Below, piece by piece: positions 1,469 to 59,007 of a stretch of DNA of 59,194 nucleotides. Made by a program: the position numbers and the translations under genes. This stretch comes from Tolypothrix carrinoi HA7290-LM1 (GTDB lineage: Bacteria > Cyanobacteriota > Cyanobacteriia > Cyanobacteriales > Nostocaceae): NCBI GenBank assembly GCA_019358935.1, contig JAHHIK010000047.1, positions 1 through 59,194 of the forward strand. Reading direction: 5' to 3'. The notes beneath the pieces are model-generated. The model was not told where the DNA came from, did no database searches, and saw only the letters and a list, made by a program, of their open reading frames with translations. Every line of letters begins with the position of its first letter. Position 1 is the stretch's first letter.

Positions 1469-2707
1469 ATGCCGTCTCAATCCAATTCAGCTCGTCAACG
1501 TCTAATTGAAGCAGCGCTTGAATTATTTACCGCTCAGGGAGTCAGCGGCACTACAACCCGCCAAATTGCAGAAAAAGCAGAAGTCAATGAAGTTACGCTA
1601 TTCCGGCATTTTGGCAATAAGCACGGGCTACTTTTGGCTGTCTTAGAAGAATCCGCAGCCTTTAAAAATTTAGGTGAGTCTTTAGTTAGCAGAGCAATTC
1701 CACCTGGTAATGTGTATCAAGCTCTGAAAGATTATGCAAGTGAAAGCTTACACGCATTAGAACAAGTTCCAGAGTTTGTTAGGTCTGTGGTAGGTGAAGC
1801 TGACCAATACCCAGCAGAAAATCGCCGTGCTTTGGGACGGGGGTTAACAGAAGCAAACCGTTATGTAGCAGAGTACTTAGCCACTGTAATCGAACAGGGA
1901 CACTTGAATACCTATCTGCCGGCAGAAAAACTAGCGAGTTTGTTAAATGGGATGCTGCTGGGATATGCTGTGATTGAGTTCACTAGCGAATTTCACGAAC
2001 TTTGGGAAGATAGAGATGATTTTCTGGAGAATCTGGTGCAGTTGTTTTTACAAGGAGCAATGTCACCCGTACTCGAACCAAGTCAATATTCCTCAAGTTT
2101 GGTTGTAATAGATTCTAGTATTAGGGAAGTAGCTGATTTGCCGGCTTCTTTAGTTCATCAAATTCTCCAACAAGCGAGAAAATTGGGAGTGCAAGATTAT
2201 GCATTGGCGTATGTGTTATTTGCTGCTGGGTTATCTGTTGCGGAAGTAGTTGGCTTGCAGCGATCGCATCAATTTTACGATACTCAAGGGCATTTTCTGC
2301 AAATTGCCAATAACAGCGGATTTCGCCAAGTACCTGTTAATCAGTGGATAATGGGTAATCGCTATGGTTCCTACACTAATAATCCATTAACTAAATGGCT
2401 GAAAAGCCGTAAAGATAATCAATCTGCCATGTTTATTCATGAATCTGGGGAGTCAATGTCAGAATCACAAATTGACGTACACTGGCACATGTGGACACAA
2501 GGACTGTTAACACCAGAAGGACAACCCCCAGCAATTATTCAAACACAACAAACTTGGCGTGTAGAAATGTTGATGCGCGGCATGAGCTTAGAAAATCTTA
2601 GCATTTTAACAGGATGCGATCGCACTCAATTACAACCCTACGCCAAAAGAGCCAGAGAAAAAGCCGCTTTAGAGCAAGCAACTCGGTTAGATCAAAAACC
2701 GGGATAG
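1469..2707 (+). CDS. TetR-family regulator fused to a C-terminal degenerate tyrosine-recombinase-like domain
   Basis: N-terminal TetR HTH (TTTRQIAEKAEVNEVTLFRHFGNK); C-terminal DYALAYVLFAAGLSVAEVVGL and MRGMSLENLSILTG...PY resemble integrase boxes I and II. Confidence 0.85.
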   Translation: MPSQSNSARQRLIEAALELFTAQGVSGTTTRQIAEKAEVNEVTLFRHFGNKHGLLLAVLEESAAFKNLGESLVSRAIPPGNVYQALKDYASESLHALEQVPEFVRSVVGEADQYPAENRRALGRGLTEANRYVAEYLATVIEQGHLNTYLPAEKLASLLNGMLLGYAVIEFTSEFHELWEDRDDFLENLVQLFLQGAMSPVLEPSQYSSSLVVIDSSIREVADLPASLVHQILQQARKLGVQDYALAYVLFAAGLSVAEVVGLQRSHQFYDTQGHFLQIANNSGFRQVPVNQWIMGNRYGSYTNNPLTKWLKSRKDNQSAMFIHESGESMSESQIDVHWHMWTQGLLTPEGQPPAIIQTQQTWRVEMLMRGMSLENLSILTGCDRTQLQPYAKRAREKAALEQATRLDQKPG

Positions 2708-3883: not shown

Positions 3884-4708
3884 TTGAAAACCGACAGCAT
3901 CTTTTATCGCATCTTCCAAAGCTTACCTAGCACTTTCTTTGAACTGATTAACCAACCAGCATCACTAGCCCAAGCTTACCAATTTTCCTCAGTAGAAGTC
4001 AAACAACTCGCTTTCAGAATTGATGGTGTATTTTTACCGAATACTTCAGAACTACCCATTTATTTTGCTGAGGTGCAATTTCAACCAGATAAAAAATTTT
4101 ACTCGCGGTTATTCGCAGAAATATTTAACTATCTGGATAAAACCGAATTAACTAACAATTGGCATGGTGTTGTTCTCTTTCCTAACCGCAGCGCTGATAC
4201 TGGAGATACACAGAGATATACAGAGTTACTCAACTCACCACGAGTGACTCGTATCTATCTTGACGAATTAACAGCGATCTCAGCATCATCTATTGGGATT
4301 GAGACAGTTAAATTAATCATCGAACCAGAATCAACTGCGATCGCAAAAGCTCTAGAGATAGTAAACAACACTCGACAACAAATCATCGATGCCGCCCAAC
4401 AGCGAGAAATTATACAATTAATAGAGACGATATTAATCTACAAATTGCCGCGCTTGAGCCGCGAGGAGATGGAAAAAATGTTTGGATTAAATGAGTTAAA
4501 GCAAACTAGATTTTATCAAGAAGTTTTTGCTGAAGGCAAGCTTGAAGGCAAGGAAGAAGGTAAGCTTGAAGGTAAGCTTGAAGGCAAGGAAGAAGGTAAG
4601 CTTGAAACTATACCTCAGTTATTGGCGTTAGGTCTGAGTATTGAACAGATAGCTCAAGCGTTAGGTTTGGATGAAGCTGTTGTTAGACAAGCCGCATCGA
4701 AATTATAA
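3884..4708 (+). CDS. Rpn-family PD-(D/E)XK nuclease / putative transposase (DUF2887-like)
   Basis: MKTDSIFYRIF start, FRIDGVFLP, FAEVQFQ, EGKxEG repeats, C-terminal GLSIEQIAQALGL helix-turn-helix. Confidence 0.9.
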   Translation: MKTDSIFYRIFQSLPSTFFELINQPASLAQAYQFSSVEVKQLAFRIDGVFLPNTSELPIYFAEVQFQPDKKFYSRLFAEIFNYLDKTELTNNWHGVVLFPNRSADTGDTQRYTELLNSPRVTRIYLDELTAISASSIGIETVKLIIEPESTAIAKALEIVNNTRQQIIDAAQQREIIQLIETILIYKLPRLSREEMEKMFGLNELKQTRFYQEVFAEGKLEGKEEGKLEGKLEGKEEGKLETIPQLLALGLSIEQIAQALGLDEAVVRQAASKL

Positions 4709-5367: not shown

Positions 5368-5810
5368 TGTACCTACTTGACACAAATCACTGTAGTGCTA
5401 TTATCTTGGGCGAACTAAATGTTGTTCGTCAAGTGATTGAAGTTGGAGAATTAAACATCGCCACTTGTGTAATTGTGCAAGGAGAACTTACATATATGAT
5501 GGAGAATTCTGCACAAAGATAAATGAATCTCGTTCGTTTGGCAGAGTTTATCAAAGATATTCGTATCTATCGAGTTACAGAGGATATAGCTACGATTTAC
5601 GGTCAACTCAAAGCCACTTTGATGAAACAATTTGGTCTCAAAGAGAAAACCAAGCGAAGAAAAACTAAAATTACCGAACTAGGGTTCGATGAGAACGACC
5701 TTTGGATTGCTGCCATTGCTTTGCAACATAATCTTACCATTGTCTCAGCAGACAGTGACTTTCAACGCATTCAACAAGTTAAAGCATTATTGGTTGAATC
5801 CTGGCTTTGA
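5367..5810 (+). pseudogene. vapC: VapC/PIN toxin with an in-frame nonsense codon
   Basis: ATG 5367 MYLLDTN..., TAA at 5520-5522, same frame continues to ENDLWIAAIAL...VSADSDF. Confidence 0.85.
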
Positions 5811-39310: not shown

Positions 39311-39741
39311 TATTGCCTTCTTCGAGCAGAATCTATATAGACACAGCAGTAGCAATTTATAGTGTCGAGTGGAATCCTAATTATTATTCACTGCTAGAAC
39401 CCTTATGGTTAAAACTTCAAGCAGGATAAATCGAAGTTGTTAGCAGTGAACTAATTTTAATGGAAACTTTAGTACTTCCTTTAAAAAACGCTGATACATT
39501 TCTGCTTGATGCTTACGAACAATTGTTATTGTCCGGAGGAATGCGACTAATTCCTATTAGTCAATTAATTCTACGACAAGCTGCAAATATTCGGGCTACA
39601 ACTAACTTGAAAACACCAGATGCTATCCATGCAGCGACAGCCTTATCTGTTAGCTGTAACCAATTTGTTACTAACGATAAAGCCTTTCGTAATATTTCCA
39701 GTTTACCTGTTGTTATCCTTAGCGAAATATTAGCATCTTGA
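39298..39741 (+). pseudogene. vapC: VapC/PIN toxin with an in-frame nonsense codon
   Basis: ATG 39298 MGQLVLP...IYIDT, TAA at 39427-39429, same frame continues to KTPDAIHAATA...FVTND. Confidence 0.85.
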
Positions 39742-50345: not shown

Positions 50346-50468
50346 AAGAGCGATCGCCGCAGCGTACTTTATATTAGAAGCGATCGCTCTTTGTGCATAA
50401 TTACAGGTTCTCATCAAGGCGATCGCGCTTAAAAGCACTTTACAAGCATTGCAGTCATAGGGCACATC

Positions 50469-50897
50469 CTAGCTTGTCGCTGCTCGTTTCTTTCCATTCC
50501 CGTTACTGTCCACACTGGCAACAAATGACGGTTGCTGTGAACTAGAAGTTGGCGACTCGCCTCGCAGTCCCTTGCGACGTTGCGTTTTACGAACTCCTCC
50601 CGCCATGCCATACTCTACACTGCTTTTGCCATATCGAGTACCAACTCCCATCAGCATATGCTCTGTCATATCTCCCAATTGACGCTCTGTTTGGAGCATT
50701 TCACTGTATAACTTATCCAGGTGGGAAAGGGCGCTGTTGTATGCATTTTCTTGAGTTCGCATCGTCTCAATTAGAGTTGAGAAGGCAGGTAGGGTGAGTC
50801 CATTGCCCACATCTAAATTCGGATCAATTGAGCTCATACCAGCCGCACGACGCACTGCTTTTTGTAACACCGGAGAGCTTCTTTTTCTACGACTCAT
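50469..50897 (-). CDS. Hypothetical protein (helical, basic termini)
   Basis: MSRRKRSS...SIDPNLDVGNGLTL...YGKSSVEYGMAGG; AAGG RBS. Confidence 0.8.
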   Translation of the reverse strand: MSRRKRSSPVLQKAVRRAAGMSSIDPNLDVGNGLTLPAFSTLIETMRTQENAYNSALSHLDKLYSEMLQTERQLGDMTEHMLMGVGTRYGKSSVEYGMAGGVRKTQRRKGLRGESPTSSSQQPSFVASVDSNGNGKKRAATS

Positions 50898-51040
50898 GAT
50901 ATGTACCTTGTAAAATAGTACTGTTAATATTCTTTACCTTAAAGAATATCCGTATCGATCAGCCTGAGAAAATTCTGGCAAATCTGCAACAATTTTTGCT
51001 ACAAGCTATAGTTGTCATAAATGCGCGATCTACTGAAATG

Positions 51041-51335
51041 AGAAAGCATTTAAGCATTTTGAGAAAGCAAACTCCGGTTTGCTTGCTCAAAACACCAAAA
51101 TTAGAAAACAAACTCCGGTTTGCTTGCTCAAAACACCAAAATTAGAAAACAAACTCCGGTTTGCTTGCGGAAAACACCAAAATTAGAAAGCATTTAAGCA
51201 TTTTGAGAAAGCAAACTCCGGTTTGCTTGCTCAAAACACCAAAATTAGAAAGCATTTAAGCATTTTGAGAAAGCAAACTCCGGTTTGCTTGTAGAAAACA
51301 CCAAAATCAGAAAGTAATTAGGCATTTTGAGAAAG
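51041..51335. repeat. Modular tandem array (21/21/20-bp modules) with five C-TCCG-G hairpins
   Basis: CTCCGG at 51072, 51113, 51154, 51216 and 51278 (periods 41, 41, 62, 62). Confidence 0.9.
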
Positions 51336-51388: not shown

Positions 51389-51722
51389 GCGATGTCTGAC
51401 GACAAGAAGCAGAGCTTCTACGCACTTTTGATGATGGGGTTGATGTGGGCGATCGCCGGATGCTACTTTACTACAGGCGATGTAGCTGCGACAAGAAGCA
51501 GAGCTTCTACGCATTTGGTGATGATGGGTTTGATTTAGGCGATCGCCGGATGCTACTTTACTACAGGCGATGTAGCTGCGACAAGAAGCAGAGCTTCTAC
51601 GCATTTGGTGATGATAGAGTGATGTGGGCGATGTCTACTTTAAGGGGCTACTTTCTACGCACTCTGAGCAACTGTGTCAAATAAGCGATGTGTTCGCGCG
51701 ACAATAAGCAGAGTTTCTACGC
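51389..51722. repeat. HIP1-anchored modular repeat block A
   Basis: Intact or split GCGATCGC sites alternate with recurring 20-26-bp linkers; includes a 90-bp tandem duplication. Confidence 0.9.
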
Positions 51723-51841
51723 AAATTGGGCATTTATTCAGTTAAAAAGCTACCGGATAGGCTGATACAGTAAAATTATAATGATAGGCTATAGTAACTC
51801 TATTGAAGCTAAACTTACTGTATGTTGGAATTGAGGTAAAA

Positions 51842-52060
51842 ATGGAAACTACAACGAGAAAACAAGCTTTAATCAAAGCTATTTATGAGCGATTAGAACA
51901 AGCTTATGAAGATACCTTAGAAGATGTCATAGAACTTTTAGACATTCGTAAAGCAGAAGACCAAGAGGATATTAAAGCTTTACATGAAGGACGGGAAGAT
52001 ATTAAGAAAAATGGCACTATTCCCTGGGAACAAGTTAAACGAGAATTAGCCAGTGAATAA
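51842..52060 (+). CDS. Putative antitoxin of the RelE toxin
   Basis: GAGG RBS; ends GTIPWEQVKRELASE; overlaps relE. Confidence 0.8.
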   Translation: METTTRKQALIKAIYERLEQAYEDTLEDVIELLDIRKAEDQEDIKALHEGREDIKKNGTIPWEQVKRELASE

Positions 52061-52319
52061 ATATAAAATTGAATTTTCTAATGCTGCATCTAAACAACTC
52101 AAAAAATTACCTATAAAAGTACGGACAAAGATACAAACAAAAATTGATGATCTAGCTGATAATCCCCGTCCTAACGGGGTTGTTAAGCTAGAAGATTCGG
52201 ACAATGGTTATCGAATCCGAGTCGGCAATTACCGAGTTATATACGATATTTTTGATGATGTGTTAGTAGTTAGTGTTGTGAAAGTAGGGCATCGTAAAGA
52301 GGTTTACCGCGACGAGTAA
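52053..52319 (+). CDS. relE: RelE/ParE-family toxin
   Basis: ASKQLKKLP, NPRPNG, YRIRVGNYRVIY, VGHRKEVYR. Confidence 0.92.
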   Translation: MNKYKIEFSNAASKQLKKLPIKVRTKIQTKIDDLADNPRPNGVVKLEDSDNGYRIRVGNYRVIYDIFDDVLVVSVVKVGHRKEVYRDE

Positions 52320-52371
52320 GACGGCAACACTAACAGCAGGAGAAAAGCTGTATATTTATACTCTCATAAAG

Positions 52372-52490
52372 GCGATGTAGCAGCGACAAGAAGCGTAGCT
52401 CTCTACGCACTTTTGATGATGGAGTGATGTGGGCGATCGCCGGATGCTACTTTACTACGGGCGATCGCTTTTGGTGATGTGGGCGATCGC
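52372..52490. repeat. HIP1-anchored modular repeat block B
   Basis: Same linkers as block A (GATGATGG...GATGTGG, CGGATGCTACTTTACTAC). Confidence 0.9.
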
Positions 52491-52541
52491 ATCTTAAGCC
52501 TAACTATAATTAATACTACAAAGAATCTGGAGGTCAGAACA

Positions 52542-52931
52542 ATGCAATATCAGGTATTTGTTAGGAGTCGATCCGAAAGCCACTTCGTTGCATCTGTTGT
52601 GGGAATGCCAAATTTAACAGTTGAGGGTAGAACGGAAGAAGAAGCGATGCCTGCGGCAACCCCTGCGGGGAACGCCAAGGCAAAAGCTTCCCTGAAATCC
52701 CAATTAGCAACGGGTAAGTTTGTGACGATTGAGGTGAATCTAGAAGATGGGTTGAATGAAACTGTATCTCAAGTAGAGAAGCCATTTTTTGAAACCGCAA
52801 CGGATGAAGAATGGGAAGCAGCACTCATGGATTTGGCAAATAGTTCCTTTTTTCGCAAAACACCGCCTCTTTCAGACGAAGCCATCAACCGCGAGAGTAT
52901 TTATGGTGAAAGAGAAGATAGCCAATTATGA
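52542..52931 (+). CDS. Putative antitoxin with HicB-like N-terminus
   Basis: FVASVVGMPNLTVEGRTEEEA; C-terminal PLSDEAINRESIY; ATGA overlap with the PIN gene. Confidence 0.75.
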   Translation: MQYQVFVRSRSESHFVASVVGMPNLTVEGRTEEEAMPAATPAGNAKAKASLKSQLATGKFVTIEVNLEDGLNETVSQVEKPFFETATDEEWEAALMDLANSSFFRKTPPLSDEAINRESIYGEREDSQL

Positions 52932-53379
52932 GTTATCTAATCGATACAAACGTTCTATTGCGTGTAGTACAGAAGAATAGTCCCATGCATACTGACGCTC
53001 GTAGAGCGTTTGTCACATTGCGGAAACAAAGTGAAAAGCTTTGTATTATTCCCCAGAATGTGCCTATCGTTTTGGGCAGTTGCAACACGTCCTTTGGCAA
53101 GTAATGGCTTAGGCTTGACGACAGATGAAGCAGAAAAAGCGGTTAAGAAACTAAAACGGATTTTTATATTATTTCCCGATACTCCAGTAATTTTTACTGT
53201 ATGGTAAAATTTGGTAACTAAGTATCAAGTTATGGGTAAACAGGCACACGATACGCGGTTAGTTGCTGCCATGATTGCTCACGAAATGACACATATCTTG
53301 ACCTTTAACACGGATGACTTTAAGCGGTTTTCCGAAATTACTGCTGTAGGTTCCAAGAACTATCGTACCACCAGCATAA
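52928..53379 (+). pseudogene. vapC: VapC/PIN toxin with frameshift(s) and a nonsense codon
   Basis: MSYLIDTNVLLR; frameshift near 53060; TAA at 53205-53207; HDTRLVAAM...TFNTDDF; probable further shift near 53350. Confidence 0.85.
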
Positions 53380-53401
53380 TTAGCGCTCACTATCGCTTCA
53401 T

Positions 53402-53522
53402 GCGATCGCACTCTGAGCAATTGTGTCAAATCTGCGATCGCATTTCTGATGATGGGGTTGATTTAGGCGATCGCCTCTGGTGGGCACTCTGTGTGATCGC
53501 ACTCTTGTTAATTGTGTCAAAT
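53402..53522. repeat. HIP1-anchored modular repeat block C
   Basis: GCGATCGC-ACTCTGAGCAATTGTGTCAAATCT-GCGATCGC-ATTTCTGATGATGGGGTTGATTTAG-GCGATCGC. Confidence 0.9.
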
Positions 53523-53534
53523 AGGAATAAAGAT

Positions 53535-53930
53535 TCAACTAAATGGATTCAATGTGGATATACCACAACCCTCAAAATCTTTAATATTTCTAGTAACAAG
53601 TGTCAAAGAATGTATTTTAGCTATTGCCGCGATAAATATATCAGCTTGTGTTCGCGGTTTACCTTGAGTTCTCAAAAAGCCTCTCAATTCACCCGCACAC
53701 TTGGCAATTTCTGAGGTGATGGGGAGAATTTGACAGTGAGTGAAGAGAAAGTTTTCAAACCAGTTTTGGATTCTAGCATTAGGCTTGGCTGTTAAACCAT
53801 AATAAATTTCTTCAATTGTAATAACACTTAAGTTAAGAGATGTCACAGTATCGATCCATGCTGTCACCCCTGAATTTGGCATTGGGCGAGTTAATTCACT
53901 AATAATATTCGTGTCACAAAGATAACTCAT
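53535..53930 (-). CDS. vapC: VapC/PIN toxin (intact)
   Basis: MSYLCDTNIISE, ADIFIAAIA, LVTRNIKDF. Confidence 0.92.
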   Translation of the reverse strand: MSYLCDTNIISELTRPMPNSGVTAWIDTVTSLNLSVITIEEIYYGLTAKPNARIQNWFENFLFTHCQILPITSEIAKCAGELRGFLRTQGKPRTQADIFIAAIAKIHSLTLVTRNIKDFEGCGISTLNPFS

Positions 53931-53931
53931 C

Positions 53932-54204
53932 CTAGTCTTCCGTAAAAGGATTGTCACGGTCGCTTCGTGGTGGTATCTCTAAGCTATAATTTTCTTCGGT
54001 ACATAACTGCTGAAGTTCTTTAAAGACTTGAGCAAGAGATGTTTTTGCAGTTTTTTGCCGCCAGTCTAAAAATTCTTTAAAAAGCTCAGGGTTTACAATT
54101 GCAGCAACTAGTTCCTCTTGAGTATAAATTAGCTGAGGTTCAAGACTTGTGGCATTAATTATGGAAGGTAGCTGTTTTTTGGCTTCTTCAAGTGTCCATT
54201 TCAT
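53932..54204 (-). CDS. Phd/YefM-like antitoxin
   Basis: MKWTLEEAKKQLPSIINAT...EPQLI; directly upstream of vapC. Confidence 0.8.
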   Translation of the reverse strand: MKWTLEEAKKQLPSIINATSLEPQLIYTQEELVAAIVNPELFKEFLDWRQKTAKTSLAQVFKELQQLCTEENYSLEIPPRSDRDNPFTED

Positions 54205-54273
54205 TCTAAAAATCTCCAAGTTTTGGAAGCATTGAATTATAGAGGCTGTTCTCAAGTTAGCTTATTTTCCCAA

Positions 54274-54660
54274 GCGATCGCACTCTTAGCCACTGTGTCA
54301 AATCTGCGATCGCACTTTTGGTGATGGGGTTAATTTAGGCGATGTCTGGCGACAAGAAGCAGAGCTTCTACGCACTTCTGGTTATGGGGTTGATGTAGGC
54401 GATGTCTGGCGACAAGAAGCAGAGCTTCTACGCACTTTTGATGATGGGGTTAATGAGGCGATCGCTTTGTTTACGAAAGGCTTAAGTTGAAATTAACTTG
54501 CTAAAGTTGCTTTGTGTCAAAGCGATCGCACTCTTCGCAACTGTGTCAAATCAGCGATCGCATTTCTGGTGATGGGTTTGATATGGGCGATCGCTGTTGT
54601 TTGTTTTTGAAACGCTTAAGTTGAAAATAAGTTGAAAATAACTTGCCAAAGTTGCCTGGT
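54274..54660. repeat. HIP1-anchored modular repeat block D
   Basis: Same linkers as blocks A-C, a 60-bp tandem duplication, and a twice-repeated GCTTAAGTTGAAA...AACTTGC.AAAGTTGC. Confidence 0.9.
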
Positions 54661-54805: not shown

Positions 54806-55132
54806 ATGGGTTTATTCACTGATTTAATTAACGGGATTTTCTCACTCCTACCAGACTTTGTTGAAGACAACCTAGAAGACAAAATTCCTTTTCATACCGA
54901 AGATGGTAAATTAACGGTAAGCGATTGGGATGCGAATAAGGATAATCAGATAAACCCTACAGATGGTTACATCCACAGGAATGTTGATAGTTTAGGCGAT
55001 TTGAAAAAAAAATTAATGAAATTTGATGATGCAGGAGACATAACAGACAAGCTAGGTGAGTTAACAAATAAAGCGGATGATGTAAAAAACGTAGTGAGTG
55101 ACATATTTGATGCTATCAATAAGCTGAAGTGA
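54806..55132 (+). CDS. Acidic hypothetical protein, possible EF-hand-like loop
   Basis: GGAG RBS; DANKDNQINPTD. Confidence 0.7.
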   Translation: MGLFTDLINGIFSLLPDFVEDNLEDKIPFHTEDGKLTVSDWDANKDNQINPTDGYIHRNVDSLGDLKKKLMKFDDAGDITDKLGELTNKADDVKNVVSDIFDAINKLK

Positions 55133-55363
55133 AAAGTATTATCCTGAAAAATAGTTAAACTCTTTCAAAGTGAACTATAACTTTTGGATAAAATAGAAGG
55201 TTTGTTCGCTAACTATTTACGCGAACAAACTTGTCATTACCCTTACTGATGATTTTTAGCATCTTACGGTTCAGTTAAAGCTTAAAATCCGAACTTGATG
55301 CGCGAATTAAGCAATTTGTAAAAAAAATGGTGTTACAAAGAAAAATATAAATTAGGAAAAATC

Positions 55364-55762
55364 ATGAAGAATAATATTAAGTATGCCACAATCATTTATA
55401 TATTAACAATAGCTTTATCAGGCTGTACTGCTATAGACGATATTTTTAAAGCAGGTTCTAAAAATGCTGATACTTTGGTACAGCAGGGTTCCAGAAATGC
55501 TGATACTGTGGTACAGCAGGGTTCTATAAACGCAATAAAAAATAGATTGGATCAAAAATGCCTTCAACAATTTCGCAAAAGTCGTAGAGCGGAGTTAGTT
55601 CGTGACTTATTTAATGGTCAATCATCTGAAGATTATCTAATTCGTGCAACTAGAGATGCACTACAAAAATGTATCTTAGGAAAAGTTGCTGATTCCATAT
55701 TAGACAAATTGGTACAGGAAGAGATAGAAACAGCTAAAACTGAATATAAACCACACTTATAA
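55364..55762 (+). CDS. Putative lipoprotein
   Basis: Lipobox LSGC; internal 11-aa repeat GS(K/R)NADT(L/V)VQQ. Confidence 0.75.
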   Translation: MKNNIKYATIIYILTIALSGCTAIDDIFKAGSKNADTLVQQGSRNADTVVQQGSINAIKNRLDQKCLQQFRKSRRAELVRDLFNGQSSEDYLIRATRDALQKCILGKVADSILDKLVQEEIETAKTEYKPHL

Positions 55763-55911
55763 CCTGTTACCCCCAATCATTAAGTGTAAGGAAATTCCGT
55801 TTTAGTTGTGTTACCCAACTTTCTAGGGAGTTAAGGCGATCGCAACACAAATTGCTCTAATTGTATCGGCAACCAAATGTACCGGTGATAAATGCGTGGT
55901 AACAATAAAAC

Positions 55912-57713
55912 CTACCCGACACCATCCACCGCCCCCAAAGCCAAGAGTGCCGATCGCTGCGCCGCTGTTAACCCAGTCACCCCCCTGATGTTCATCCCTT
56001 CATAAAGGCGATCTACATTCAGGGTTTTAATGCACTCAAGAGTTTCCATATCCCAAAGCTTAATCACATCATCATGACTAGTATTAGCCAAGATGTTACC
56101 CAGAGAATTAAAACTAACAGAACATTTTCCACTAATATGACTATGCAAGACTCTAACACAGGTAAATTTATTGATATCCCATAAGCGAATTGTTTGGTCA
56201 GAACTGGCGGATGCCAAGGTGCAACCATCAGGACTAAAACTGACTGACCATACAGTAGTACTATGTCCTTGCAACACTTTTACGCAAGTAAAGTGACTGG
56301 TATCCCACAATCGAATTGAGCGATCGATACTACCAGTAGCGAGTATTTTAGCATCTGGACTAAAACTCAATCTAATTCTTGACAAACTTGTTTAACCAAT
56401 CGCTGGGTGGTATATTCCATCACGACTGGTTGCAGAAAGAAATGCTCACCGCTTTTTTCAATTAATGACCTTTGCAATAGAGATTTAATTGCTGAAGGTA
56501 CGAGACGCTGGGAAGAAGATGTGACTATATCAGCAACTAACTCGTCAAGGGATACTGGCTCTCGATTAATGCAGGTCCAGTACATTACTTCCTTTTCTAC
56601 TGCTGACAAATGGTAGAACTGCCGTTCTAACAAGTCGCGGATGTCGTCAAAAATTAGTATCCCCTGTTCCATATACTCCAAAACAGGGGCAATCTTACCA
56701 TTGAAAAGCTCTTGGGTTCCGGCTGCTACCATCTTGAGCGCTAAGGGATTACCGCCATAATGGTTGATGAGTTCTTGCCATTCTCGTTCTGTACCCGTGA
56801 ATTGTCCTTTTTGCTGAAATAACTGTTGCCCCTCGGTAGAATTTAATCCCTTTAATGGGAGCGATCGCACTCCTGTTCTGTCTCCTTCTAACGCTACCAT
56901 TTCTCTGGGTTTTTCTCTAGAAGTGAACAGAACACAACTATTATGGGGTACTTCACCAACACGCTTCAGTAATTGACCATATCCTTCGTAGCCAGGACGA
57001 CATTGCCCTGCTTGCCCACCACCAGATAAAATTGTCTCCACATTGTCTAAAATCAGCAGACAACGGTTATTTATCAAACATTCCATCAGCTGCGATACTT
57101 TTTCATCAAAACTTTCTAGTATCACCATCTCCTTTCGCAACGCCCACAGCAAAAATTGCAGTATGCTTGTTAATTGTGCCTCCACTGGTGGTGCATTTTG
57201 CAGACTCCGCCAAACCACTACCTCAAATTCGCCTTGAATTTGCAGCCCTAATTTTACTGCTAAACTGCTTTTGCCAATACCACCAATTCCCAGCAGTCCG
57301 ACTAAACGACACCGTTCTTCTAACACCCACTGCCGTAATTGCACTAGTTCCTCTGAGCGACCATAAAATACAGATACATCCGGTGCTTCACCCCAGTCAT
57401 ACTGAGGATTGGCGTGTCTCACTTCCAAATCGTCAGGGGGGCTTGGTCGGGTATAATCGCTTTTACACAACTCCAAATTAAAGGCAGCGAAAGCAGACTG
57501 CAAGGAACTTTTATCTACGGGTTCCAAGCGTGCCAAAATTCTAGATATAGTGTGTAGAGCTAAACGGGTGCGATCGCTCAGTTCTTCTAAAGAAAAGCTG
57601 TCTCCAGCATTATCATCAAATTCGGCTTCTATTTTGGCAGCTTGAAATTTATCCCAGCCTTTGAGCGTGAGGATAACACCCCGCCTGCGTCTGCTTGGTT
57701 GCTGTTTCATCAA
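55912..57713 (-). pseudogene. NB-ARC (STAND NTPase)-WD40 gene with an internal deletion and frameshift
   Basis: DWGEAPD, Walker A GIGGIGKS, LLILDNVE, GNPLAL; stop at 56367 joins out of frame to only about 3 WD40 repeats and the YEGMNI...LGA tail. Confidence 0.85.
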
Positions 57714-57986: not shown

Positions 57987-59007
57987 TGAACCACCTGGAC
58001 TTCTAAAACCGGACTTGACGAACCCGGCAAATGGCATTCATGTCATAAATCTTATCGTCTACAAAATAGCCGAAGTTCTTCAAGCGTCCGGATATCCAGA
58101 ACCAACAATTTGGCAATCTTCTCCCATCACCACAGTTGCCAATAACTTCGACAAGCTTTATATCCCTGCTGAAAGTTTGTCTCGTTCCCCGAAATACACG
58201 CGCTACCTTAGCGATGGTAGGCTGTTAAGAACTCACACCAGCGCAATCATACCAGAGTTACTTCCCCATTTAAAGGGGGAACAACTCATCATACACCCAG
58301 GTATCTGTTATCGCCGCGATGTGGTGGATAAGCGTCATGTGGGTGAACCGCATCAAATGGATGTTTGGTTGATAAACCCGTGTAACGTCTCTAAAGTTAA
58401 ATTCATCGAAAGCATTCTTTATGCAGTTCTTCCAGGTGTAACTTACCGCTTAAATGAAACCGCGCACCCCTACACTCGCAACGGTGTAGAAATTGAGGTT
58501 TTAGTTAATGGTAACTGGCTAGAAGTCGGAGAATGTGGGGAAATTTACCCAGATTTACTGCAACCAGGTTACAACGGTTTAGCATCAGGTTGGGGATTAG
58601 ATCGTTTAGCCATGTTAATAAAAGGGATAGATGACATTCGCTTACTGCGAAGCACCCATCCCCAAATTGCTAACCAGATGACGAACCTGGAACCCTATTG
58701 TTTGGTGTCCAATCAACCCAATATCAACCAAGATATGTCAATTGTCACCGGGAGAGATACTGAATTAGAAGACATCTGCGAAAAGATACTTGAGGCGTTG
58801 GGTAATAATGCTGAACTATTAGAGTCAGTGGAATCCCCAGACTTCAACTGGCACATTGTTAAGCTCTCCGGCGGGGTAAAAACGCACTACAAACTCAACG
58901 AGTTATCAGCCGCCCTGCTTGTCACATACGACTTACGACTGGCACAACGCTTAACAGTTCTTTACAGTGAATCCCCAGAGCGCTTATTTGCCTCAGGTAG
59001 CAATTGA
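57987..59007 (+). pseudogene. PheS-related monomeric ligase paralog (SrmL-like), apparently damaged at both ends
   Basis: NFDKL, LLRTHTSA, GICYRRD, HQMD, HPYT, EVGECG, GWGLDRLAM, DDIRLL; RBS-linked ATG 57987 is out of frame with the TTG 58015 ORF; similarity appears to end near 58833. Confidence 0.65.

Follow-up and report, generated by a model that had tools for sequence, protein, structure and literature searches.

How do toxin-antitoxin (TA) gene pairs of different families come to stand in a row between blocks of the same short repeats, with no integrase beside them? The question is raised by positions 51389 to 54660 of contig JAHHIK010000047.1 of the cyanobacterium Tolypothrix carrinoi HA7290-LM1, a stretch of 59,194 nt that was analysed as a whole and that we call the window. 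This window is C47, a contig of a 7.96-Mb genome in which the octamer HIP1 (highly iterated palindrome 1) occurs 7,903 times; below, G000 denotes this source genome, other G-numbers relatives, L-numbers mapped loci and C-numbers contigs of G000. The array in the window belongs to a family of such arrays found across the Nostocales, which share a cassette pool. It resembles an integron in how it works without being one, and it fails every integron feature for which the result was clear. The explanation that we favor, at a probability of about 60%, is that host recombination, crossing over at HIP1, gains, loses and reorders linkers of ~25 nt and TA cassettes of 650-950 bp with fixed polarity and no dedicated integrase.

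What are the blocks made of? The initial annotation had described four HIP1 blocks in a single orientation with one two-gene TA module between successive blocks, and all of this holds: every A or B linker lies on the plus strand. The core of block 3 occupies 53402-53474, and its degenerate tail runs to 53522. Block 1 (51389-51722) has seven HIP1 joints, two intact and five split by inserts, with linkers B, C and A. Three intact HIP1 and one split form block 2 (52372-52490). Block 3 (53402-53522) reads HIP1-A-HIP1-B-HIP1 followed by the degenerate HIP1-A tail, and block 4 (54274-54660) holds eight HIP1 joints with linkers A and B and additionally two copies of a distinct segment, P (~54466-54521 and ~54595-54660), marked by an AAGTT-N6-AACTT inverted repeat. 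A fifth cluster on the same strand, a HIP1 triplet that we call block 0 (50350-50426), directly follows the stop codon of a badF-family gene, bounds a further segment containing orf142 and forms the left edge of the variable island. Cut at GCGAT, the blocks fall into HIP1-plus-linker units of 22-33 nt and insert-holding units of ~60 nt. The 22 HIP1 sites, intact and split, within these 3.3 kb are the tied second-highest count in the genome. The HIP1-linker units fold no better than shuffled sequences (z -0.85 to -1.86), an Rfam scan gave nothing significant (a single match at E 0.72), and the promoter and terminator scan was at chance level, with 10 promoter-like sites against 12.9 expected.

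The linkers belong to this place. They might have been scattered through the genome, the outcome that the initial annotation had set against its own proposal, and a sequence search of G000 found them confined to this locus. At two or fewer mismatches, all four genome matches to linker A and all three to linker C lie in the window. For linker B the window holds 5/5 matches at one mismatch or fewer, 7/11 at two and 7/38 at three.

The split octamers represent something else, an already known element of SDR5 type, so that the earlier description of the blocks as HIP1 with a small set of linkers stands for the intact units, while the split-HIP1 units prove to be a genome-wide insert family and not linkers. 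SDR5 is a small dispersed repeat of the Nostocaceae, an insert of ~21 nt placed precisely inside HIP1 (PMC4390886, PMC5861425, PMC13756078; the sources cited here and below were available in part, and our statements refer to those parts). We call the inserts SDR5-type because their geometry matches that given in these reviews. The inserts resemble SDR5 in being short, precisely placed in HIP1 and dispersed genome-wide, with empty sites in homologs: 108 split-HIP1 sites occur across G000, dozens of BLAST matches lie on other contigs, and one 24-nt insert (52649-52672, plus strand) sits in frame within the HicB-like gene of cassette 2, between GCGAT and CGC/CGT, where two homologs lack it. In contrast, linkers A, B and C have a local distribution; they are set between whole octamers and delimit gene cassettes.

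Between the blocks stand three modules. Cassette 1 consists, on the plus strand, of a 72-aa putative antitoxin gene (51842-52060), assigned by position and without a Pfam match, and a RelE/ParE toxin gene (52053-52319; PF05016, 4e-15). Cassette 2, also on the plus strand, pairs a HicB-like gene (52542-52931), weakly assigned from sub-threshold Atlas leads and without a Pfam match, with a vapC (PIN) pseudogene (52928-53380) that, compared with two homologs, has a frameshift near 53068 and a stop at 53205-53207. Cassette 3 lies on the minus strand, with a VapC (PIN) toxin gene (53535-53930; PF01850, 1.7e-12) and a Phd/YefM-like antitoxin gene (53932-54255; Phd 0.0024, below the cut-off) whose homologs start near 54204. 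The earlier identification of the modules was thus right for the ParE/RelE toxin, the PIN pseudogene and the inverted PIN-Phd pair, while the antitoxin and HicB assignments are weak or positional. As type II TA modules, in which a small antitoxin gene stands next to one for a toxin domain, the set contains ParE and PIN domains above cut-off, and the toxin of cassette 2 is broken.

Is the content of the array fixed? Identical content in relatives had been named as a result that would speak against cassette exchange. At the orthologous interval between the badF-family and pheS-like genes, neither content nor order is shared, and the breakpoints fall at or inside the blocks. The interval is empty in G005 (~180 bp), holds McrBC-type genes in G009, and in G001 contains orf142, what is left of a cassette 3 and, flanked by two blocks with the same linkers, a DUF433-DUF5615 pair. 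In G001, G003 and G009, as in the window, the variable part begins at the HIP1 just past the badF-family stop codon; past the first HIP1 of block 0, the sequence in G001 and in G003/G009 is a different one. Elsewhere, we noted the 3' end of a badF-family gene stranded beside a HIP1 and a block (L036:9280-9326) and a stranded WD40 piece beside a block, ending at a HIP1-like site inside the gene (L031:11517-11609).

The family extends well beyond this interval. We surveyed 151 genomes of the family, from 67 genera, with a 33-nt linker pattern, allowing three or fewer mismatches and using the reversed pattern as a control; the pattern was found in 35 genomes and 22 genera, the control in none. 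An exact linker-B pattern matched 32 stretches among the GTDB contigs, all from Nostocales. In 32 of the 35 linker-bearing genomes the linker occupies a single locus, and the nearest long upstream ORF (open reading frame) falls into 30 groups across 40 loci, some of them possibly members of the island itself. A TA gene or remnant lies within 500 bp of the linker in 24/35 genomes, versus 86 of 7,884 HIP1 sites in G000, a lenient control; most loci were recruited through the linker, and the TA pool behind the 24/35 was derived from the same loci. About a dozen near-identical cassettes recur among the mapped loci. The recurring pairs are RelE, Phd-VapC, HicBA, DUF433-DUF5615, PIN_3-RHH, HigBA and an HNH pair, and the loci further hold other PIN pairs, one XisHI pair, Uma2, orf142 and P segments ahead of varied passengers. 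A plasmid search returned one weak VapC match and no linkers, and a phage search no match.

Where do the cassettes end? The flanks of cassette copies are alike up to a HIP1 and then diverge. Among 80 sides of non-reference copies, 65 are homologous up to the reference boundary, and a HIP1 half-site stands at that boundary in 54 of these, exactly in 46, against a background of 1.5-1.9% for exact half-sites and of 11-16% if one mismatch is allowed. In pairwise comparisons, homology extends to the boundary at 344 ends; it breaks off at the first HIP1 in 220 of these, inside the block (over the following 110 nt) in 116 and farther on in eight. Cassette copies share ancestry, and the boundary and joint counts are therefore descriptive and not independent trials. 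The joints are combinatorial as well: among 238 joints in 46 loci (excluding L034, which has no A or B match; the counts omit L087, which overlaps L061), linker B has 30 types of successor and 32 types of predecessor, and up to three kinds of neighbor occur at single cassette ends. Linkers thus behave no differently from cassettes, both being segments that octamers delimit. Cassette 2 even retains its HIP1 edges in L025, where the linkers around it are of another family.

Could the blocks instead be regulatory or neutral intergenic repeats, expanded nests of HIP1 and SDR5 that build up next to TA genes at a hotspot where they are tolerated, and that play no part in movement? SDR5-type inserts do occur throughout the genome, HIP1 clusters lie mostly outside long ORFs (30/40), and four of the 35 linker-bearing genomes have no recognized pool member nearby. 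Yet cassette copies cease to be homologous at the HIP1 edge, and a given cassette is found with the same linkers in different genera. We consider a bystander role very improbable.

A second feature of the arrays is their polarity. No locus among the 46 mixes linker strands, and 35 of these have more than one linker. Relative to the linkers, cassettes of a given type keep one orientation, with 47 the same, none opposite and 21 unscorable; ten of the 47 set the reference and 37 are tests. Types c1, c2, c4, c5 and c6 read with the linkers, and c3, c8, c9, c10 and orf142 against them. Order is less constant. Among 20 cassette pairs seen in at least two loci, seven occur both ways round, some on partial copies, the clearest conflicts being c5/c10, c5/c4 and c8/c9; such orders are not producible by deletion from one ancestor. 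Cassettes also cross genera, since cassette 3 is 90-94% identical in G015, G016, G022 and G023, which belong to four other genera, where the badF region is 71-80% identical, and this points to recent horizontal spread of the cassette.

These observations bear on a view in which the loci arose by deletion from one ancestral TA island, or from a few, moved as a whole, with HIP1 marking deletion end points, linkers multiplying by slippage and no single cassette ever gained. Fixed polarity would follow from it without further assumptions, cassette remnants and truncations are frequent, and HIP1-bounded deletion is known (PMC13756078, as far as available). Deletion does not reverse order, however, and the conflicting pairs run against it, as do the 30 host contexts and the occurrence of one cassette in two linker families. 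We judge it improbable.

How, then, would an array grow by exchange at HIP1, the explanation that we favor? The initial annotation had proposed a gene-capture array working by recombination between blocks; varying content and HIP1 boundaries support it, and the capture and recombination steps are ones that we infer and do not see. A TA pair flanked by HIP1 would first enter an array through HIP1 alone and could do so either way round, as suggested by the existence of types that read with the linkers and types that read against them. In later exchanges a polar linker or a neighboring cassette would serve as the anchor on one side, with resolution at a HIP1 on the other. Such one-sided anchoring would preserve polarity, where the palindrome alone would allow inversions, and none were seen. 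Cassettes would be lost when the DNA from one HIP1 site to another is deleted. Natural transformation is the probable route for donor DNA; ComEC is present in G000. TA addiction would slow loss and so enrich TA pairs among the survivors, and SDR5-type inserts would land in the joints afterwards. The scheme fits two reports, in the parts available, namely precise excision flanked by HIP1 (PMC13756078) and a 7- to 100-fold increase in transformation conferred by one homologous HIP1 (10.1101/2024.09.10.611283). For integrons, a bias in persistence through TA addiction has likewise been argued (PMC13108822, available portion).

Several points weigh against this explanation. No recombination event, circle or cassette-skipping joint was seen in the material, which consisted of assembled contigs only. 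An anchor of ~35-70 bp is short for RecA. Among all pairwise homology ends, 246/590 stop short of the boundary, in truncated or diverged flanks, and at several cassette copies found by gene similarity a block is missing on one side or on both (L027, L029, L035 and L037). The HIP1 at a shared edge is partly inherited, as copies are not independent. Of 76 other TA loci in G000, only 16 have a cluster of at least two HIP1 sites within 500 bp, and clusters of at least three are not enriched (2/76); most TA loci of G000 therefore sit outside such arrays. The 16 do exceed the 5-6 expected, none of 500 resamplings reached that number, and a gap test gave 7/48 versus 55/1,150 (p = 0.01). Finally, a trans-acting enzyme among the recombinases encoded elsewhere in the genome may be responsible and remains a candidate.

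Sequencing runs were consulted on the same points. Contigs of run X1, probably the assembly's own source and so not independent, span all three modules with no differing letters, and no block-to-block joint was found in them, assembled contigs being all that was searched. Run X2, from a near-identical strain, contains cassettes 1 and 2, with coverage ending at 53511-53560 and uninformative further right. In that run, foreign sequence, possibly an insertion element, is joined at 53511-53513 in the tail of block 3. Block-skipping joints in runs X3 and X4 were not used, as they had short sides and came from mixed metagenomes.

Is there an enzyme? The statement that the array has no local integrase was borne out: G000 has 20 tyrosine and 11 serine recombinase matches, none of them on C47, and none of the 52 window ORFs scanned contains a recombinase above cut-off. 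For IntI, TIGR02249 gave 24 matches in G000, the best at 53.8 bits versus a cut-off of 265 and none on C47. The ends of attC sites read RYYYAAC and GTTRRRY; as had been expected, no attC-type end pairs 40-140 nt apart occur on either strand of the five blocks. We set aside a TetR-family protein (window 1469-2707) with a partial tyrosine-recombinase-like C-terminal region, which scores 18.8 bits against the PF00589 cut-off of 27.1 and lies 48 kb away. No transposase was found among the ORFs at 44-59 kb, the nearest candidate being an Rpn-family gene at 3884-4708. With no adjacent transposase, and with only HIP1 at the array ends, an insertion sequence, a miniature inverted-repeat element or a composite transposon was rejected. 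So was a CRISPR array, as the spacers recur and include whole gene pairs.

A dedicated site-specific enzyme acting in trans, possibly the SDR5 inserter, might nevertheless move cassettes as circles, with HIP1 plus a polar linker as its site, which would make the array a true integron analog. The very precise GCGAT|CGC joints, which the arrays share with SDR5-type inserts, agree with this, as do the strict polarity, a linker conserved over 22 genera and the recombinase genes elsewhere in G000. Against it, no recombinase ORF recurs beside arrays in the mapped loci, among the selected ORFs scanned; at many joints the cassette side is without a linker; and the title of Robinson 1997, as given in the reference list of PMC4390886, has HIP1 excision similar in Escherichia coli. 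Several unrelated linker families also give the same architecture: within G000, other polar families bound HigBA at C50, HNH plus antitoxin-like pairs at C130 and unassigned two-gene pairs at C103. An enzyme of this kind seems to us unlikely. Those three arrays (C130:416-3925, C50:589-1559 and C103:1454-2502; L043, L041 and L042) carry inserts of 650-900 bp, and C130 has blocks of 12 and 26 sites. Another dense region, C117:2283-5474, has 22 HIP1 sites in 3.2 kb near PIN and Phd genes.

How does the array, read as a product of exchange at HIP1, compare with known systems? Like integrons and clusters of attC sites without an integrase (CALINs), it has modules between co-oriented repeated sites, varying order and content, and an enrichment of TA pairs (for integrons, PMC13108822, in part). 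Unlike them, no IntI and no attC ends were found, and no attI site or Pc promoter was recognized, in a promoter scan that stayed at chance level; the joint is an 8-bp palindrome with ~7,900 genome copies; the spacers themselves are shuffled; cassette types point both ways; and arrays occur at many host loci. With the deletions and plasmid recombination attributed to HIP1 (Gupta 1993 on smtB; Akiyama 1998; Robinson 1997), it shares crossover at HIP1 with little other homology (PMC13756078, PMC4390886), but those were, as the available text presents them, single laboratory events, whereas here a standing, polar cassette pool spans many genera. The mixed-family TA islands of Makarova 2009 (PMC2701414) likewise hold close TA pairs of different families that duplication does not explain. 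That work, in the part available, left their assembly open between preferential incorporation and cassette transfer, whereas the joints are visible here. A ParDE-like module of Microcystis PCC 7806 (PMC7935541) is also a cyanobacterial TA pair between direct repeats, but it is a single module between two identical 152-bp repeats, and the accessible text mentions neither HIP1 nor shuffling.

The arrays are real and widespread, and as a system they are apparently undescribed. No description of HIP1-bounded TA arrays was found in the literature searched, a body to which subscription papers and supplements did not belong; Elhai 2008 may cover the short repeats. The ingredients (deletion at HIP1, SDR5 and TA islands) are each already known, and what is shown is the architecture. 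The arrays may be an emergent by-product instead of a selected system. Tentatively, and with more doubt than belief, we consider a bolder possibility, that Nostocales run an evolved cassette system without an integrase, or with a recombinase acting in trans, in which HIP1 is the universal crossover point, linkers are maintained adaptors, and a community pool of TA, nuclease and secreted-protein cassettes can be inserted next to nearly any gene. Such a cassette system would be an analog of integrons that has none of their parts. The function of HIP1 has been open for ~30 years (PMC5861425, PMC13756078, in the parts at hand). If the possibility held true, HIP1 would gain a concrete function in gene exchange, and cyanobacterial engineering a programmable joint. 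The arrays offer hundreds of natural HIP1 junctions with defined donors, a polarity rule and variation among strains, so that HIP1-dependent exchange becomes directly testable with one marked cassette.

What surrounds the array? On its left lies orf142 (50469-50897, minus strand), a cyanobacterial hypothetical gene without a Pfam family that recurs in these arrays; it has several paralogs in G000, and its Atlas matches are unnamed cyanobacterial clusters only. Tandem repeats of 41 and 62 nt upstream of it (51036-51335), outside the linker family, are imperfectly palindromic.

On the right, the P segment of block 4 precedes two passenger ORFs of 108 and 132 aa on the plus strand (54806-55762) without Pfam matches, which are followed by a HIP1 at 55836-55843. 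Elsewhere P stands ahead of a wide variety of passenger genes (CVNH, crystallin, pentapeptide, AMP-binding and unknowns), as at L031, L033, L062, L113, L119 and more. Convergent pieces of NB-ARC and WD40 genes come next in the window (55912-57713, minus strand), and their homologs often follow P-ended arrays elsewhere. P itself often lies upstream of a convergent NB-ARC-WD40 gene, and within G000 it occurs only at this locus; its inverted repeat is possibly an operator for the N-terminal domain of the NB-ARC-WD40 protein. Two further PIN-domain genes stand on the contig outside the array (window 5370-5774 and 39331-39699), and a PheS-related ligase, SrmL (NF051887, above cut-off), is encoded at 58015-59007.

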